DNA of 64,000 nt, from NCBI RefSeq assembly GCF_046292425.1, contig NZ_JBKBQV010000001.1:52175-116174 (forward strand). Reading direction: 5' to 3'. Below the pieces are notes generated by a model. It saw nothing but the letters and a program-made list of their open reading frames with translations. It searched no databases and was not told the DNA's origin. The position numbers and the translations under genes are program-made. Below, piece after piece: positions 1 to 32,186 of the stretch. The DNA is from Sphingorhabdus sp. Its GTDB lineage: Bacteria > Pseudomonadota > Alphaproteobacteria > Sphingomonadales > Sphingomonadaceae. The number at the start of each line of letters is the position of its first letter. Positions within the stretch are counted from its first letter, which is position 1.

Positions 1-186
1 CCGCTTGTAATTGTCGAGCGTGCCAGAGATAACAATATCGGCTGGGCCAGCATTTTGTCCAAAGCTGTATAGCCACACGATGGCCATGGGCGCGATGAAG
101 AACAGGGCTAGCCAGAACACCGGTGCCGTTGCGACGGCCGCAAAAGGCTTCTTCTGGGCTTTCCAGTCCTGCAACGGCCCTGACAT
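1..186 (-). CDS. ABC transporter permease, N-terminal part (PotB/PotH-like), runs off the window edge
   Basis: Not in the ORF track because it is open at the edge. My minus-strand translation from the ATG at 186 is MSGPLQDWKAQKKPFAAVATAPVFWLALFFIAPMAIVWLYSFGQNAGPADIVISGTLDNYKR, with no stops. The hydrophobic first TM is typical of polyamine ABC permeases. It starts 3 nt after the stop of the binding-protein gene. Confidence 0.6.
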   Translation of the reverse strand, partial: MSGPLQDWKAQKKPFAAVATAPVFWLALFFIAPMAIVWLYSFGQNAGPADIVISGTLDNYKR

Positions 187-15464: not shown

Positions 15465-15640
15465 TTTCTGATACCTTGCCCGAGCGCCTCAGTTTAATTC
15501 GGCGCGATCCTTTGTCACCCGATGCCCGAAGTAAGAGGCTGAAACAAGTTCAGCATGACAGAGTGAACGACGAACAACTGTGCCCGCATCGCACAGTGAC
15601 GGTTGCATTGCTGGCGCCCTCGCCCTATCCGCCCTTGACC

Positions 15641-17443
15641 ATGTCAGCACCCCCTATTTTTGCCTTCGAAGGTCTCGCGCTACAGCAAGGCGGCGGATGG
15701 CTGTTTCAGGATATCGACCTGTTTATCGGTGCGCGTGACCGCTTGGCGTTGATTGGCCGCAACGGTGCTGGCAAAACAACCTTGATGAAGCTGGTGGCTG
15801 GAACGGTCGAGGCAGACAAAGGCAACCGCGTCGTCGTGCCCGGCACGAATATCGTTATGCTGGAGCAAGACCCGGACGTCACATCATTTAACCGGCTGGT
15901 CGATTTTGCCGTTTATGGCGAAAAAGGACCGCCCGAATATGCCGTGCGCGCTATCGCTGACCAACTGGGTATTAATTTGGACCGAGAGGCAAAGACCGCA
16001 AGCGGCGGGGAAAAGCGCCGCGCTGCGATTTGCAGAGCGCTCGCGAGTGAACCCGACTTGCTCCTTCTTGACGAGCCGACCAATCACCTTGATCTTGCTG
16101 CAATCGAATGGCTCGAAGAATGGCTGACGCGCTATCGCGGTGCCTTCATGGTGATCAGCCACGACAGGACATTCTTGACGCGATTGACACGGCAAACCTT
16201 TTGGCTCGACCGTGGGCTGCTGCGCCGCAACGAGATAGGCTTTGGCGGTTATGAAGCATGGACGGAACGAGTCTTTGCCGAGGACGCGCGGAACGCAGAC
16301 CGTCTGGATGCCAAGCTAAAGATTGAGGCACATTGGCTTGAACGTGGCGTGACTGCGCGGCGCAAGCGTAATCAGGGCCGATTGGCGAAATTGTGGGAGA
16401 TGCGCGCGGCGCGTGCGGCGATGATTGGACCGCAAGGCACAGCCAAGCTCGCCGCGTCGAGCGATGACAGCAAAACGAAAACTGTCATCAGCGCCCAGCA
16501 TGTTTGCAAAAGTTTCGGTGAACGGACAATCATCAAGGATTTCACGCTGCGCATCCAGCGCGGTGACCGCATAGGCATTGTGGGTGCAAATGGCACAGGC
16601 AAGACGACTCTCATTCGCCTCCTGACCGGAGAGACGGAACCTGACACGGGCAGCATTACACTTTCGCCTACGCTGACCGGCATCGTCATCGACCAGCAGC
16701 GCAAGTTGCTGACGCCGGAAAAGCGCGTGCGCGATGTCTTGGCCGATGGCGGCGACTGGATCGATGTGCGCGGCGTGCGCAAGCATGTGCAGGGCTATCT
16801 TAAAGAATTTCTTTTTGACCCGGCGCTAATCGAAGCACGGATTGGGTCTCTTTCCGGTGGCGAGCAGTCGCGCATACTGCTTGCCCGCGAGTTTGCGCGT
16901 GAAGCCAATCTGCTGGTGCTGGATGAGCCGACCAACGACCTTGATCTGGAAACGCTCGATCTGCTTCAAGAGGTTATTGCGGATTATGACGGCACAGTGT
17001 TGATCGTTAGCCATGACCGTGACTTCCTTGACCGAACCGTGACATTGACGCTTGGTCTGGACGGTTCGGGCCATGTCGATATTATTGCCGGCGGATATGC
17101 GGACTGGGAAGACAAACGCGACAAGCGGGCCAAGTCGAACCCAAAAAAGGCAGACAAGACGTCGTCGTCCGTGCCTGCGGCCGCCGGACAAACTGCCGCG
17201 AAACGGGTAAAGCTTACTTACAAAGACCAGCGCGATTATGATCTTCTGCCTCAGCGCATCGCGGAAATCGATGCGGAGATCGCGGCAGCAGAGTTAGAAA
17301 TGGCCGACCCCGCTTTATACACGCGAAAACCTGAGCGGTTTGCAGAATTAACCGCCAAGACGGAGAACCTGCGCGCCGAAAAAGACACAGCTGAAGATCG
17401 CTGGCTCGAGCTGGCTTTAATCGTCGAAGAGTCCGCCTTTTAA
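15641..17443 (+). CDS. ABC-F family ATPase (Uup-like)
   Basis: Track ORF 15476..17443 trimmed to the ATG at 15641 (MSAPPIFAFEGL). It has two ABC cassettes (GRNGAGKTT with LSGGEKRR/LLLDEPTNHLD, and GANGTGKTT with LSGGEQSR/LVLDEPTNDLD), no TM domain, and a charged C-terminal coil. Confidence 0.9.
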   Translation: MSAPPIFAFEGLALQQGGGWLFQDIDLFIGARDRLALIGRNGAGKTTLMKLVAGTVEADKGNRVVVPGTNIVMLEQDPDVTSFNRLVDFAVYGEKGPPEYAVRAIADQLGINLDREAKTASGGEKRRAAICRALASEPDLLLLDEPTNHLDLAAIEWLEEWLTRYRGAFMVISHDRTFLTRLTRQTFWLDRGLLRRNEIGFGGYEAWTERVFAEDARNADRLDAKLKIEAHWLERGVTARRKRNQGRLAKLWEMRAARAAMIGPQGTAKLAASSDDSKTKTVISAQHVCKSFGERTIIKDFTLRIQRGDRIGIVGANGTGKTTLIRLLTGETEPDTGSITLSPTLTGIVIDQQRKLLTPEKRVRDVLADGGDWIDVRGVRKHVQGYLKEFLFDPALIEARIGSLSGGEQSRILLAREFAREANLLVLDEPTNDLDLETLDLLQEVIADYDGTVLIVSHDRDFLDRTVTLTLGLDGSGHVDIIAGGYADWEDKRDKRAKSNPKKADKTSSSVPAAAGQTAAKRVKLTYKDQRDYDLLPQRIAEIDAEIAAAELEMADPALYTRKPERFAELTAKTENLRAEKDTAEDRWLELALIVEESAF

Positions 17444-17955
17444 CCAGAAATTCTGTAAAAACACGCCAGCCGGTCCAACGCAATTTTCAGGACCAGCTTC
17501 CCCGACCGCACTGGCCATGACATTTCGCGTTCGGCGACTGGCACGCTTTCACCCACGCAAATGACCCGCCATGCGATGTCCGACAAATCAGGACCAAGCG
17601 CTGTCAAGGCTTGGTCAAAGCGAGCTTTTGCACTAATCGTCCGCTCGGTGGAATTTAACCCGGATGGGGCCGCACGTTTTCTCCGGCTGCGCGGAATATT
17701 CTCCCAAGACATGGTTATCTGCGGCCCAAACGCCGCCGTTTCATAATCACGGCGCAAGTTTTCACCGGCCAACATTTGGCGATCGGTTAAGTGACCATGA
17801 GCATGCAACCAAGATAACGGGGATTCAGATAGGTTTACCGTAACGGTACGTTCACCGGCTCTTACAGCGGAGCGTACTCCATTTTGGTTCAATCCTTTCT
17901 CGACAAGAGTTCGCGGATCATGAAGTTTGTGGTTAGAAAATAACTTAGCGGGCAT
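17440..17955 (-). CDS. Conserved hypothetical protein, DUF6456-like (by-eye assignment)
   Basis: Track ORF starts at TTG 17958, and the ATG at 17955 gives MPAKLFSNHK. About 171 aa. The core ESPLSWLHAHGHLTDRQMLAGENLRRDYE and C-terminal SGKLVLKIALDRLACFY resemble the alphaproteobacterial DUF6456 family from memory. This was not verified by HMM. Confidence 0.55.
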   Translation of the reverse strand: MPAKLFSNHKLHDPRTLVEKGLNQNGVRSAVRAGERTVTVNLSESPLSWLHAHGHLTDRQMLAGENLRRDYETAAFGPQITMSWENIPRSRRKRAAPSGLNSTERTISAKARFDQALTALGPDLSDIAWRVICVGESVPVAEREMSWPVRSGKLVLKIALDRLACFYRISG

Positions 17956-17991
17956 CAATAGTCTCCAACGGTGGGCCGAATCATCATTGCC

Positions 17992-18032
17992 ATTTGGTGA
18001 ATATTGTAGGAAAGAAAAAACCTATTTGGTGA
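17992..18032. promoter_or_regulatory. Composite operator-like element W1-W2-W1 in the divergent control region
   Basis: ATTTGGTGA (17992-18000) is followed by ata, then TTGTAGGAAAG (18004-18014), then aaaaaacct, then ATTTGGTGA (18024-18032). The direct repeats are 32 bp apart. The element lies between the ATG at 17955 (minus) and the ATG at 18044 (plus), and its words recur at 23090-23132. Confidence 0.55.
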
Positions 18033-18043
18033 CGGAGGGATGC

Positions 18044-18607
18044 ATGCAAAGTCGAATTCGCGATGTTCGCAAGGCAAAAGGACTTACCCTTGCGGAGGTG
18101 GCAGAACGCTGCAAACCACCTACAACGGCGCAAACAATTGGACGTCTCGAAACAGGCACCCGCGTGCTATCGCTGATATGGATTAACCGGATTGCGGAGG
18201 CTTTGAAGGTCGACTCCAGTGACCTCATCGCGTTGCCTGATCAACAATATCTACCCGTGGCCGCCATATTACACGACGACGGTACGTTTGCCCCGAGACA
18301 AACAGAGCGCATCATGGTCCCAAACACGGGTGATGCGATGATAGGTATGCGTATTGCCGCATCCACCGGTCAATATCGGCGTGGCGATCAATTATGGCTG
18401 CAACAATTGCAGCCCAACCAGTTTTCCTCCGCGTTGAATCTCGATGTTCTTGTACCTCGACCCGGCGGTCGCTTTATCTTTGGCCGGCTTTTGGGGCACG
18501 AGGCTGGAAAGCTGCACATCCTGCCAATCGAGACAGGCGCTCGCCAACAGATCGTCGCTGATCCAGCATGGATTGCAAAAGCTGTCCGTTTGGTCCGCCA
18601 GCTTTAA
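18044..18607 (+). CDS. XRE-family HTH regulator with a C-terminal LexA/CI (S24)-like domain
   Basis: Track ORF 17927..18607 trimmed to the ATG at 18044 (GGAGGG lies 6 nt upstream). It has an HTH (RKAKGLTLAEVAERCKPPTTAQTIGRLETG) and an S24-like fold (GDAMIG...RRGDQLWL...FIFGRLL...LHILPIE). Confidence 0.8.
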   Translation: MQSRIRDVRKAKGLTLAEVAERCKPPTTAQTIGRLETGTRVLSLIWINRIAEALKVDSSDLIALPDQQYLPVAAILHDDGTFAPRQTERIMVPNTGDAMIGMRIAASTGQYRRGDQLWLQQLQPNQFSSALNLDVLVPRPGGRFIFGRLLGHEAGKLHILPIETGARQQIVADPAWIAKAVRLVRQL

Positions 18608-22944: not shown

Positions 22945-23021
22945 CGGGACGTAGCGCAGCCTGGTAGCGCATCACACTGGGGGTGTGGGGGTCGCAGGTT
23001 CGAATCCTGTCGTCCCGACCA
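22945..23021 (+). tRNA. tRNA-Pro (anticodon GGG)
   Basis: I folded it by hand. Acceptor stem CGGGACG/CGTCCCG, D stem GCGC/GCGC, anticodon stem TCACA/TGTGG with loop CTGGGGG, T arm GCAGG-TTCGAAT-CCTGT, and an encoded CCA. Confidence 0.95.
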
Positions 23022-23089
23022 ATTTTTCAATCAAAATTTAACGTCAATTCGACGCGCAACCCAGATGGGATGCCGCGCTTCACATTTTA

Positions 23090-23132
23090 CTTTCCTACAA
23101 GAAACCTATTTGGTTAGTATTGTAGTCGAAAG
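23090..23132 (+). promoter_or_regulatory. Composite operator/promoter-like element upstream of the lysis cassette, sharing words with 17992-18032
   Basis: CTTTCCTACAA (23090-23100) is followed by g, then AAACCTATTTGGTTA (23102-23116), then gta, then TTGTAG-tc-GAAAG (23120-23132). This forms an imperfect palindrome CTTTCCTACAA...TTGTAGtcGAAAG, ending 15 nt before the ATG at 23147. Confidence 0.55.
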
Positions 23133-23146
23133 TGAGGTGTCACGCG

Positions 23147-23689
23147 ATGGATCATGTTGACCATTTGATTGAAGAGGTAATTGCACGTGAGGGCGGTTTC
23201 GTGGATCATCCCAACGACAAAGGTGGCCCCACCCGTTGGGGAATCACGCAGAAGGTTGCGCGGCGCCACGGCTATATGGGCGATATGGACGAACTGCCTC
23301 GCAGCATCGCCGCCGCCATCTACAAACGGTCCTATTGGCACGCGCCGGAATTTGACCAAGTCGAGCGCACCGCGCCAAAACTGGCTGCCGAGCTTTTCGA
23401 TACGGGGGTGAACATGGGCACTGACGCGGCGATCGCTTTTCTACAACGCGCACTGAACGCGCTGAACCGCAACGGCCGCGACTTCGACGACATTGCCGTC
23501 GACCGAAAGATTGGGCCAGCTACGTTGCGCGCTCTGGAGGCATTTGTCCGACGTCGAGGAAGTTTGGCAGAAGACGTGCTGATCAAAGCAATCGATGCGC
23601 TTCAGGGTGCACATTATGTTCGTCTTGCCGAATCACGGCCCACACAAGAAGCATTTTTGTACGGGTGGCTTACGAACCGTATAGGTTAG
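23147..23689 (+). CDS. Phage/GTA-type endolysin: GH108 N-acetylmuramidase with a PG_binding_3 domain
   Basis: Track ORF trimmed to the ATG at 23147 (GAGG upstream). The N-terminal EGGFVDHPNDKGGPTRWGIT is the GH108 signature with the catalytic Glu. The C-terminal VDRKIGPATLRAL is a PG_binding_3-type motif. Confidence 0.85.
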   Translation: MDHVDHLIEEVIAREGGFVDHPNDKGGPTRWGITQKVARRHGYMGDMDELPRSIAAAIYKRSYWHAPEFDQVERTAPKLAAELFDTGVNMGTDAAIAFLQRALNALNRNGRDFDDIAVDRKIGPATLRALEAFVRRRGSLAEDVLIKAIDALQGAHYVRLAESRPTQEAFLYGWLTNRIG

Positions 23690-23711: not shown

Positions 23712-24125
23712 ATGTCAATTATTGAAGGTATGTTAGGTCCAATTGCGGGCATAATCGACAAGATCATCCCTGATCCTAAAGCCCGCGACGCTGCGAAACT
23801 GCAGCTAATCAAGCTGCAAGGCAGTCAGGACATGGAAATTCTGCGTACGCAGTTATCCGCGATCCTTGCCGAAGCGCAATCTGCCGATCCATGGACCAGC
23901 CGCGCGCGTCCAAGTTTCTCATACGTTATGTACGCGATGCTGTTGTGGGCAATTCCAATGGGGTTGATTGCAGCACTGCGGCCAGAGGCCGCAGCGAATA
24001 TTGCGGCCGGCATGAATGCCTATCTTAACGGCCTGCCCGAGCCGTTATACGCGCTTTTTGGGACTGGATATGTTGGTTACACGGTGGCCCGCCAATGGGG
24101 TATCTCGCGCGGGATCGAAAAATAG
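23712..24125 (+). CDS. Three-TM holin (family named for gene-transfer-agent release)
   Basis: 137 aa, starting 22 nt after the endolysin stop with its own GAAGG SD. The N-terminal IDKIIPDPKARDAAKLQLIKLQ...ILAEAQSADPWTSRARP followed by hydrophobic segments matches my memory of the 3-TM holin family. HMM check needed. Confidence 0.75.
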   Translation: MSIIEGMLGPIAGIIDKIIPDPKARDAAKLQLIKLQGSQDMEILRTQLSAILAEAQSADPWTSRARPSFSYVMYAMLLWAIPMGLIAALRPEAAANIAAGMNAYLNGLPEPLYALFGTGYVGYTVARQWGISRGIEK

Positions 24126-24198: not shown

Positions 24199-24462
24199 AT
24201 GAAGAAATTAGTCGCAACCGTTGCTGCTCTCGCATTTGCTGCATCGCTTACCGCATGTGGCGAAGCAGGCGACAAGGCAGCCGAAGAAACCGCTGAAGCA
24301 GCCGATGCAACTGGCGAAGCTGTCGAAGCTGGTGCAGAGAATGCAATGACCGCCGCTGAAGGCACTGCCGACGCAACAGCAGAAGCTGCTGCAGACGCTA
24401 CTGCAGAAACCGGTGCTGCTGTTGAAGAAGTCGGTAAGGACATGCAGAACGCTGCCAGCTAA
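24199..24462 (+). CDS. Small acidic Ala/Glu/Thr-rich lipoprotein
   Basis: Track ORF 24016..24462 trimmed to the ATG at 24199 (AGGAGAA lies 7 nt upstream). It has the lipobox LTAC in MKKLVATVAALAFAASLTACGE, and the mature part is low complexity (AEETAEAADATGEAVEAGAEN...). Confidence 0.7.
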   Translation: MKKLVATVAALAFAASLTACGEAGDKAAEETAEAADATGEAVEAGAENAMTAAEGTADATAEAAADATAETGAAVEEVGKDMQNAAS

Positions 24463-31116: not shown

Positions 31117-31200
31117 ATTCTCATCACGTAACAAGGTTTTGTTAACTTCTGTGTGGGATTTTAATGCTGCTCGCAACCAGGGAATGAAGTGGGACCAGAC

Positions 31201-31377
31201 ATGTTGGAACTAATTCGTCGTATTGTAAAATGCGACCGGGGCGCGACAGCCGTAGAATATGGTTTGATAATATCCTTGATCGTTATTGCGATGATTGCAT
31301 CACTAGGCAATTTTGCAGGAAGCACCCAGTCAATGTGGAACCAGGTGTCGAATAAAATAACTTCAAGCACACAATGA
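31201..31377 (+). CDS. Flp family type IVb pilin (divergent paralog)
   Basis: Trimmed to MLELIRRIVKCDRGATAVEYGLIISLIVIAMIA. It has the Flp processing motif G/ATAVEYGLI followed by a hydrophobic helix. 58 aa. Confidence 0.75.
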   Translation: MLELIRRIVKCDRGATAVEYGLIISLIVIAMIASLGNFAGSTQSMWNQVSNKITSSTQ

Positions 31378-31383
31378 TTTAAT

Positions 31384-31394
31384 TGTTAACGAAA
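31384..31394 (+). promoter_or_regulatory. Conserved upstream word TGTTAACGAAA (copy 1) 97 nt before the flp paralog 2 ATG
   Basis: An exact 11-mer is also present at 31834-31844, 101 nt before the paralog 3 ATG. It contains a TTAAC half-site. Confidence 0.4.
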
Positions 31395-31480
31395 TCGTAA
31401 ATATTGAAACCTTATCCATCATTTGACGATTTTTCGGAAAGATCGCCCGGGTGTATGAACGTAAAGACAGGAGACCAAAA

Positions 31481-31645
31481 ATGAAAACTCTTAAGAAAAT
31501 CTTCAAGAACGAAGATGGCGCAACTGCAATTGAATATGGCTTGATTGCTGCTTTGATCGCTGTTGCAGCAATCACTGCAATGACCAGCCTCGGAACTAAT
31601 TTGTCCGGTACCTTTAACAAGGTTGGAAATAGCTTGCAGTCGTAA
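31481..31645 (+). CDS. Flp family type IVb pilin (paralog 2)
   Basis: Trimmed to the ATG at 31481 (AGGAG lies 8 nt upstream). Sequence MKTLKKIFKNEDGATAIEYGLIAALIAVAAITAM..., 54 aa. Confidence 0.9.
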   Translation: MKTLKKIFKNEDGATAIEYGLIAALIAVAAITAMTSLGTNLSGTFNKVGNSLQS

Positions 31646-31698
31646 GACCAAGCAGATTAAGAAAGCTGTTAAACGGTTAAATCGGTTTGGCAGTCCAA

Positions 31699-31731
31699 GG
31701 GCGGAGATCATTTGGTCTCCGCCCTTTTTTA
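31699..31731 (+). terminator. Rho-independent terminator after flp paralog 2
   Basis: GGGCGGAGA - loop - TCTCCGCCC followed by TTTTTTATTT. Confidence 0.7.
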
Positions 31732-31833
31732 TTTCCTTCAATAGATAATGAATTCTCGGAGCCAAAGTCTGTATTTGAAGACAACTTCCGTGGAGCATTC
31801 GCGCGCCTGATCAGCGCCTGTAGCGAAACTGCG

Positions 31834-31844
31834 TGTTAACGAAA
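31834..31844 (+). promoter_or_regulatory. Conserved upstream word TGTTAACGAAA (copy 2)
   Basis: See 31384-31394. Same word at the same relative position upstream of flp paralog 3. Confidence 0.4.
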
Positions 31845-31934
31845 AATATACCAGTTGAAGATAGAAAATATGGTCAGTTACCTCGCTTTACAAGAACGGT
31901 TCAGGTGAGTCGGGCGGGTGACAGGAGACCAAAC

Positions 31935-32099
31935 ATGAAAACTATCAAAAAAATCTTCAAGAACGAAGACGGCGCAACTGCAATTGAATATGGCTTAATT
32001 GCAGCGCTAATCGCAGTTGCGGCGATCACCGCTATGACTAGCCTCGGCACCAACCTGTCTGGCACCTTTAACAAGGTCGGCAACAGCTTGTCATCTTAA
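31935..32099 (+). CDS. Flp family type IVb pilin (paralog 3)
   Basis: Trimmed to the ATG at 31935 (AGGAG upstream). Sequence MKTIKKIFKNEDGATAIEYGLIAALIAVAAITAM..., with 52 of 54 residues identical to paralog 2. Confidence 0.9.
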   Translation: MKTIKKIFKNEDGATAIEYGLIAALIAVAAITAMTSLGTNLSGTFNKVGNSLSS

Positions 32100-32151
32100 T
32101 AGGCGACCAAAGACAACTGCTATTGATCATAAGGTCGCATCGGCAGTTAAA

Positions 32152-32186
32152 GGGCGGAGACCAGTTGGTCGCCGCCCTTTTGTTTT
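32152..32186 (+). terminator. Rho-independent terminator after flp paralog 3 (touches the convergent M48 gene end)
   Basis: GGGCGGAGACC - agtt - GGTCGCCGCCC (one mismatch) followed by TTTTGTTTT. The stem sequence is related to the terminator at 31699. Confidence 0.65.

Follow-up and report, generated by a model that had tools for sequence, protein, structure and literature searches.

In the 64,000-nt stretch of Sphingorhabdus sp. DNA analysed here (hereafter the window), two intergenic regions carry the same pair of conserved regulatory elements: PgafZ (17959-18043), which lies between divergent genes for a RogA-like repressor and a GafZ-like activator, and Plysis (23022-23146), which lies in front of an endolysin-holin cassette. 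Judged from the sequence, the likeness of the two regions is that of two separate elements, an oriented box with the core CTTTCCTACAA and a palindrome with AACC and GGTT arms. Taking sequence and comparative analysis together, it is fairly probable that the two regions are promoters of one regulon of the gene transfer agent (GTA) type, in which the palindromes would be RogA-like operators and the box a GafZ-dependent element; we infer both the assignment of protein to element and the direction of control. The elements are located as follows.

18004-18020, minus strand: oriented box of PgafZ, TTTTTT-CTTTCCTACAA, ending 48 nt before the gafZ ATG (17955).
18019-18031, unstranded: palindrome O1, reading CACC-AAATA-GGTT along the gafZ strand; it lies immediately upstream of the box, 13 nt ahead of the rogA ATG.
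17985-18000, minus strand: O2-like element, ACCA-N2-TGGCAA(G/T), downstream of the box, a degenerate copy of the palindrome.
23085-23100, plus strand: oriented box of Plysis, TTTT-A-CTTTCCTACAA, with its end 46 nt ahead of the endolysin ATG (23147).
23102-23116, unstranded: palindrome of Plysis, AAACC-TATTT-GGTTA, with the consensus TAACC-N5-GGTTA in relatives.
23128-23137, plus strand: conserved block GAAAGTGAGG, which holds the ribosome-binding site and is complementary to TTTTACTTTC of the box.

The 13-mer AAACCTATTTGGT is present in exact form at 18018-18030 and 23102-23114, on the plus strand in both cases, and no third copy is found in the 64 kb at 0 or 1 mismatch; the 11-mer TTGTAGGAAAG is present at 18004-18014 (plus strand) and as its exact reverse complement at 23090-23100, and its only further match in the 64 kb, with 1 mismatch, lies within the endolysin open reading frame (ORF). 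Both words had been described in a first-pass annotation of the window, and they hold as described, as does its statement that they do not recur in the other intergenic regions, since the exact copies are unique in the 64 kb. The composite unit ATTTGGTKANNNTTGTAG is confined to 17992-18009 and 23108-23125, and two or more matches to it were seen in 0 of 100 window shuffles; the observed counts of all three words were seldom reached by such shuffles. The presence of this unit at the two sites alone stands, but its right half is not conserved in relatives: TTGTAG at 23120-23125 is specific to the window genome, and relatives carry TTGTTG, TTGAT, CTGT and others at this place. Similarly, the annotated spacing of 48 and 46 nt between CTTTCCTACAA and the two start codons was confirmed, but the TACAAT/TACAAG proposed as a -10 element is not conserved, its last base varying among relatives (TACAAA, TACATA, TACAAC). 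The exact identity of the 13-mer, as the alignments indicate, is partly luck of the spacer and shared in this lineage only, the AACC/GGTT arms alone being fixed.

The relatives compared were 80 loci from a scan with the DUF6456 protein encoded by the gafZ-like gene, one genome per species, from Sphingorhabdus and allied Sphingomonadales, in which this protein is 58-77% identical to that of the window. For PgafZ, 34 relatives were aligned, two of them with a guanine-plus-cytosine (GC) content of 0.69-0.70. In the orientation of gafZ the order is the rogA start, [A]ACC-N5-GGTT (O1), the T-run, CTTTCCTACAA, 5 nt and the O2-like element ACCA-N2-TGGCAAG, followed by GATTCG and then by the ribosome-binding site and ATG; the invariant blocks are ACC and GG-TT of O1, T-TCCTACA of the box and TGGCAA, and the distance from TGGCAA to the box is fixed in 34/34 aligned relatives. 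The mean column identity is only 43%, and the flanking intergenic bases are not conserved. The centres of O1 and O2 are about 31.5 bp apart, which is about three helical turns. High-GC relatives have a perfect TAACC-N5-GGTTA as O1, and the contigs of GC 0.69-0.70, whose proteins are about 48-54% identical to those of the window, keep the same O1, T-run, box and TGGCAAG between rogA and gafZ. A sigma-54 reading of TGGCAAG...GATTCG was tried and rejected; the -12 GC is missing and the spacing ranges from 5 to 16 nt among relatives.

For Plysis, 28 further sequences were aligned, namely 27 from genome relatives and the metagenome contig L465. Here the T-run is followed by CTTTCCTACAA and, after 2 nt, by (T)AACC-N5-GGTTA, which a variable stretch of 10-16 nt separates from GAAAGTGAGG and the ATG; among the blocks without variation are TTT, the greater part of the box (C-T..TC-T-CA), CC, T-GGTTA and GAAA. 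The mean column identity is 60% and, again, the flanking intergenic bases are not conserved. There is one palindrome, its centre lying some 20 bp downstream of where the box starts; CC...T.GGTTA does not vary, unlike the spacer (ATATT, TATTT, ATATC, AAATA), and fixed arms around a free 5-nt spacer are the mark of a site recognised by a dimer. The word ATAACCAT of some relatives is part of this palindrome. It can be seen that the same boxes are kept at both loci in related genomes amid scrambled intergenic bases, and it is mainly this conservation that excludes chance; the earlier annotation had argued against chance from the words of the window alone.

The elements are also highly specific for the two promoter classes. 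The 10-mer CT[T/G]TCCTACA has 100 copies in 1.33 Mb (the 80 loci plus the window), of which gafZ promoters account for 73 and lysis promoters for 25, leaving 2 elsewhere; these two stray copies lie inside ABC-F coding sequence. Chance alone would give about 5 copies. With 98/100 copies at two promoter classes, the box is not a common repeat of the repetitive extragenic palindromic (REP) kind, and a scan of the window by position weight gave no further credible site. Two site candidates within the window were set aside. The third-best box-like site, at 31725, belongs to the terminator of a pilin gene, whose T-run it is, and the palindrome AACCGTATAGGTT at 23675-23687, in the 3' end of the endolysin ORF, can mostly be put down to the NRIG-stop coding sequence; it sits 25 nt before the holin ATG, and relatives show AACCGTATTGGATAA or AGCCGTATTGGTTAA there.

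The genes at the two loci are given below.

17440-17955, minus strand: gafZ-like gene, DUF6456, 171 amino acids (Pfam PF20057, E = 4e-39, residues 40-169 of 172).
18044-18607, plus strand: rogA-like gene, 187 amino acids, with an XRE-type helix-turn-helix (HTH) and a predicted LexA/cI-like C-terminal beta domain.
22945-23021, plus strand: tRNA-Pro(GGG), found by ARAGORN and Rfam, directly upstream of Plysis.
23147-23689, plus strand: endolysin, GH108 and PG_binding_3 (Pfam E = 7e-27 and 3e-18).
23712-24125, plus strand: GTA-type holin, PF11351 'Holin of 3TMs, for gene-transfer release' (Pfam E = 2e-31).

DUF6456 is the annotation of GafA homologues (PMC9638019, PMC9765227), and the DUF6456 protein corresponds to Caulobacter GafZ, the C-terminal part of GafA (PMC9632790). 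The rogA-like and gafZ-like genes are divergent with 86 bp between them, and this divergent pair is found in 78/80 relatives, the remaining two contigs ending before rogA. The RogA-like protein has an N-terminal HTH (HTH_31, E = 2e-9; HTH_3, E = 2e-8), which is all that sequence searches of the protein detect, its C-terminal domain giving no match. Its AlphaFold2 model consists of the HTH and a beta-rich C-terminal domain, with a predicted local distance difference test score of 70 overall and 66-89 in the C-terminal domain, and the best Foldseek matches are LexA, the LexA C-terminal domain (root-mean-square deviation about 3.2 Å over 93 residues, probability 1.0) and lambda repressors; on this model the protein has the LexA/cI (S24-like) fold and resembles Caulobacter RogA. 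A weak hhalign alignment (E = 0.2) places the invariant Gly147 opposite LexA Lys156, and by eye only, GDAM/GGxM stands where LexA has GMSM; with neither Ser nor Lys at the expected positions in this by-eye and weak alignment, the repressor is probably devoid of self-cleavage. The HTH stretch TTAQT[I/L]GRLETG is kept in all five RogA-like proteins compared, with Ile changed to Leu in one of them (L058), even where overall identity is 48-53%. The 120 RogA-like homologues listed are all close relatives, and the GafZ-like HTH is conserved across deep relatives as well. The lysis locus has a PF11351 three-transmembrane holin right after the endolysin and away from structural genes, which is the arrangement of lysis cassettes of the RcGTA type (RcGTA being the GTA from Rhodobacter capsulatus); this cassette lies within 5 kb, beside yajC and tRNA-Pro, in 27/80 relatives.

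According to the proposed mechanism, the RogA-like repressor with the LexA/cI fold would bind the palindromes and thereby shut off gafZ, its own gene and, in a direct manner too, the lysis promoter, while the oriented box would be a non-consensus promoter element that needs a GafZ-type activator; once repression is relieved, GafZ would amplify its own synthesis and then turn on lysis. At gafZ the operators O1 and O2 would flank the box and reach to 13 nt from the rogA ATG, and at the lysis locus the single operator would follow just after the box. The box is read as an activator-dependent element because its distance and orientation to the genes are fixed. A consensus sigma-70 promoter (TTGACA-16..18-TATAAT, at least 9/12) was not found on the gene strand of either region, which fits activator dependence, and GTA promoters are reported to have a degenerate or poor -35 and to depend on activators (PMC11150451).

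Several observations weigh against this explanation. The RogA site in Caulobacter is GGAA-N4-TTCC (PMC9632790), whereas the palindrome here is AACC-N5-GGTT, and no GGAA-N4-TTCC repeat is present in 17959-18043; Caulobacter RogA is found on the gafYZ promoter and one unrelated promoter only, not on late genes, whereas the palindrome of the present loci occurs on the lysis promoter too. Co-variation of the two loci is in favour of the explanation but comes from one lineage only: L068, the one distant-clade genome holding both loci, has the CTGTCC variant at both. Among 145 GTA head-tail loci of IMG/VR the box was found in none, a result that is uninformative since none of these loci is tied to Sphingomonadales. 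In addition, the GafZ-binding element of Caulobacter is a palindrome between -35 and -10, that is, within the core promoter (PMC11150451), and GafA-C is a dimer that binds a gafA promoter fragment holding the -35 (PMC9638019), so that the palindrome could be GafZ's and not RogA's. The regulon would then be the same with the opposite assignment, the palindrome being a GafZ-type dimer site for positive autoregulation and lysis activation and the box a basal promoter or a site for RogA or another protein, and we regard this as possible though doubtful. It would agree with the binding of GafA to the lysis promoter (PMC6363796), with the conservation of the GafZ-like HTH in deep relatives too, and with the near-equal offset of the palindrome from the box (+20 at Plysis and +21.5 for O2 at PgafZ), which fits a position-dependent activator. 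However, O1, which is the best of the palindromes at gafZ, lies on the opposite side of the box, beside the rogA start, and Caulobacter GafZ has one target only. A palindrome of 15 bp, its half-site centres 10 bp apart, is a typical site for dimers of the XRE/cI type, which also counts against a GafZ dimer. Two sites three helical turns apart around a core promoter, moreover, form the classic repressor layout, as is known for RogA (PMC9632790).

It is unlikely that the protein binding the elements is a regulator whose gene lies elsewhere (a GafY-like partner, CtrA, IHF, LexA or another protein), the neighbouring regulators being uninvolved. GafY and IHF, and not GafZ, do occupy about 20 Caulobacter promoters (PMC11150451), and lysis gene expression in R. 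capsulatus needs CtrA (PMC6363796). No GafY-like gene was found beside gafZ: tblastn with E. coli DnaA domain IV, a weak test, gave nothing below E = 0.2 in the window and the 80 loci, and upstream of gafZ the spacer to rogA is, at 86 bp, too short for another gene; such a partner would therefore have to be encoded elsewhere, and 265/759 GafZ homologues are without an adjacent GafY (PMC9632790). Nevertheless, the elements lie in the 86-bp region between the regulator genes (78/80 relatives), which is typical of autoregulation, and no TTAA-N7-TTAA, alphaproteobacterial SOS box or WATCAA-N4-TTR is found at conserved columns; neither TTAA-N7-TTAA nor the other CtrA-type word, TTAACCAT, occurs in 17959-18043 or 23022-23146, and the CtrA, SOS-box and IHF readings were ruled out by inspecting both regions and the conserved columns. 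An explanation at the RNA level is very unlikely. It holds that the T-run and CTTTC of the lysis box pair with GAAAGTGAGG and hide the ribosome-binding site in read-through transcripts, for instance from tRNA-Pro, so that the hairpin is what is conserved; a 10-bp helix between TTTTACTTTC and GAAAGTGAGG can indeed form in 27-29/29 relatives, the fold of the window has -17 kcal/mol with z = -2.3 (z = -3.6 in L005), the inter-arm length of 10 to 16 nt is tolerable for a loop, and GAAAG upstream of GAGG is conserved beyond what a ribosome-binding site needs. On the other hand, the covariation term is about 0 with a both-side change in one alignment cell only, three relatives (L068, L075 and L003) fold otherwise, and Rfam matches the tRNA only; the gafZ region keeps the box without a pairing partner or conserved structure, and the box of the metagenome contig L423 is likewise without a partner. 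The hairpin cannot explain the words common to both loci and may at best be an extra layer at the lysis locus, an additional safeguard against tRNA-Pro read-through. Finally, it is scarcely credible that the likeness is due to chance or to a REP-like or mobile repeat without regulatory meaning: the words are short and AT-rich and the cassette is beside a tRNA gene with insertions in some relatives, but window shuffles rarely match the observed counts, the elements are conserved at both loci across 58-77% protein identity and in the relatives of GC 0.7, and only 2/100 copies in 1.33 Mb are elsewhere, both coding.

The RogA-operator and GafZ-box reading places the two regions beside known circuits, and the initial interpretation is right in outline, the regions being probable co-regulated promoters of a phage-derived lysis programme that is the Sphingomonadales counterpart of the RogA/GafA-GafZ circuit. 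The first-pass annotation had proposed one DNA-binding factor controlling both loci; the shared elements are conserved and locus-specific, as co-regulation would predict, and the genes are known GTA players, but two factors are likelier than one. The dispersed lysis regulon that it had proposed is no new kind but the Sphingomonadales version of a published GTA circuit. GafA of R. capsulatus binds and activates its own promoter, and it binds that of the lysis genes too (PMC6363796). With this circuit (PMC6363796, PMC9638019) the present loci have in common a DUF6456-type activator, promoters without a good consensus, an endolysin followed by a PF11351-type holin away from structural genes and, putatively, an activator that binds its own promoter (positive autoregulation) and the lysis promoter, where the shared conserved elements are what is seen here. 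Unlike in R. capsulatus, the activator gene here encodes only the C-terminal, GafZ-like part, no CtrA box is found in either region, the activator gene is divergently coupled to a gene for a LexA/cI-like repressor, and a sharp box and palindrome are present, whereas no published GafA consensus was found; for neither of the studied systems, GafA and GafYZ, were the authors able to define a consensus site (PMC9632790, PMC11150451).

Caulobacter RogA is a protein of 213 amino acids with an HTH and a LexA/cI-like domain lacking the cleavage residues, and its repression of the activator genes works by way of two inverted repeats that lie over the core promoter of gafYZ (PMC9632790). The RogA-GafYZ-IHF circuit (PMC9632790, PMC11150451) thus shares with the present loci an HTH and S24-like repressor, a GafZ protein, two inverted repeats spanning the activator core promoter, and non-consensus target promoters that are, or here would be, activator-dependent; the missing cleavage residues of RogA are suggested here by the sequence comparison. 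The differences are that Caulobacter rogA and gafYZ are not linked, whereas rogA and gafZ are divergent neighbours here, and that in Caulobacter gafY is beside gafZ and no holin or endolysin homologues are present. With the operators of lambda cI and LexA the present loci share a dimeric HTH repressor with an S24-like C-terminal domain, palindromes with fixed arms, two sites whole helical turns apart over divergent promoters, and probable autoregulation; the repressor here, however, is probably non-cleaving, and that of lambda does not act directly on lysis genes. What is new here is the sharply defined cis-code, the divergent coupling of rogA and gafZ, and a lysis promoter that carries the operator-like palindrome.

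Producing GTAs is lethal to the producer cell, and the coupling of lysis to the activator is therefore central to GTA biology. Sphingomonadales have been singled out for strong selection on GTA genes (PMC9765227). GTA regulation in this order has hitherto been unstudied; an 11-bp oriented box and a 15-bp palindrome kept in more than 80 species at two target classes are sharp targets for mutation, and they bear on the question of direct gating of late (lysis) genes by a repressor of the RogA type. A tentative extension is a double lock, in which the RogA-like repressor would sit directly on the lysis and activator promoters and the box would in addition serve as an arm against the ribosome-binding site in read-through from tRNA-Pro. 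If this were true, loss of the repressor and build-up of the activator would both be needed for lysis, which is undescribed for any GTA, and read-through transcripts would be untranslatable, so that endolysin would be made only from transcripts of the dedicated promoter. The tRNA-Pro gene, whose end is 64 nt from the T-run of Plysis, is a possible source of such read-through transcription into the lysis locus.

No long co-directional gene array of the head-tail-cluster kind is present in the ORF list of the 64 kb. No capsid homologue was found in the window or in the 80 relative loci, and in PLSDB no Sphingomonadales replicon with a GTA capsid or gafZ was found. The rogA/gafZ/lysis module might also act as a switch for programmed lysis in genomes that have no head-tail cluster. 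The 145 IMG/VR loci were retrieved with a consensus-like GTA capsid validated against the RcGTA capsid 6tb9 (E = 2e-118), and their tetranucleotide similarity was uninformative on clade. A low-GC candidate among them (L276) proved to be related to Parvularculaceae, and the promoters of two others (L223 and L245) look different. L223 carries a repeated box of its own, CATCTCCAGAAAT, twice within 1640-1845 upstream of its first GTA gene. Other lineages may have GTA promoter words of their own.

The neighbourhoods of the two loci show some further features. The gafZ-like gene converges on an ABC-F ATPase gene (15476-17443) with a 4-nt 3' overlap (17440-17443), which is kept in relatives. The holin is followed on the same strand by an ORF of 83 amino acids (24211-24462), which is Ala/Glu-rich, has a lipoprotein-like signal (…LTAC) and is without a Pfam family; about 13 relatives have it behind the holin as well, and it may be either an accessory to lysis of the spanin kind or something unrelated. 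The site downstream of tRNA-Pro(GGG) is variable, and other DNA replaces the cassette there in about a dozen relatives (L009, L018, L021, L036, L046, L048, L051, L053, L058, L066 and L079), two of which, L036 and L066, have an ORF of about 720 amino acids past the tRNA that is maybe an integrase, from its N-terminal sequence only. The site looks like an insertion hot spot, and the cassette may therefore have been displaced or lost in those genomes.

Pattern scans were also made in viral and metagenome contigs. The pattern TTTNNCTTTCCTACAA gave at least 120 matches in viral contigs, with only AT-rich phage noise among the matches listed, and the lysis-type composite pattern gave 0 matches in viral contigs. 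In metagenome contigs TTTTNCTTTCCTACAA gave at least 120 matches, mostly noise; among those listed, only L370, L449, L465 and L423 looked real, and two of the regions returned were rogA-gafZ intergenic regions of organisms with GC 0.69-0.70. L423 (Ga0075418_10381637, 1.5 kb, GC 0.66) has a composite element at 890-960 on the minus strand, TTTTTT-CTTTCCTACAA-T-AACCAAATAGGCTA, that is, the T-run, CTTTCCTACAA and TAACCAAATAGGCTA, directly after a terminator hairpin and with the box about 270 nt upstream of an acidic ORF of 88 amino acids without a Pfam family; it may represent a third target class, or a target of the same regulators in a high-GC relative. In the window itself, three tandem small ORFs like Flp-type pilins (…GATAIEYGLIAALIAV…) lie at 31189-32180, with a hairpin and T-run behind at least the second and third; the only other box-like score in the window comes from the T-run at 31725.

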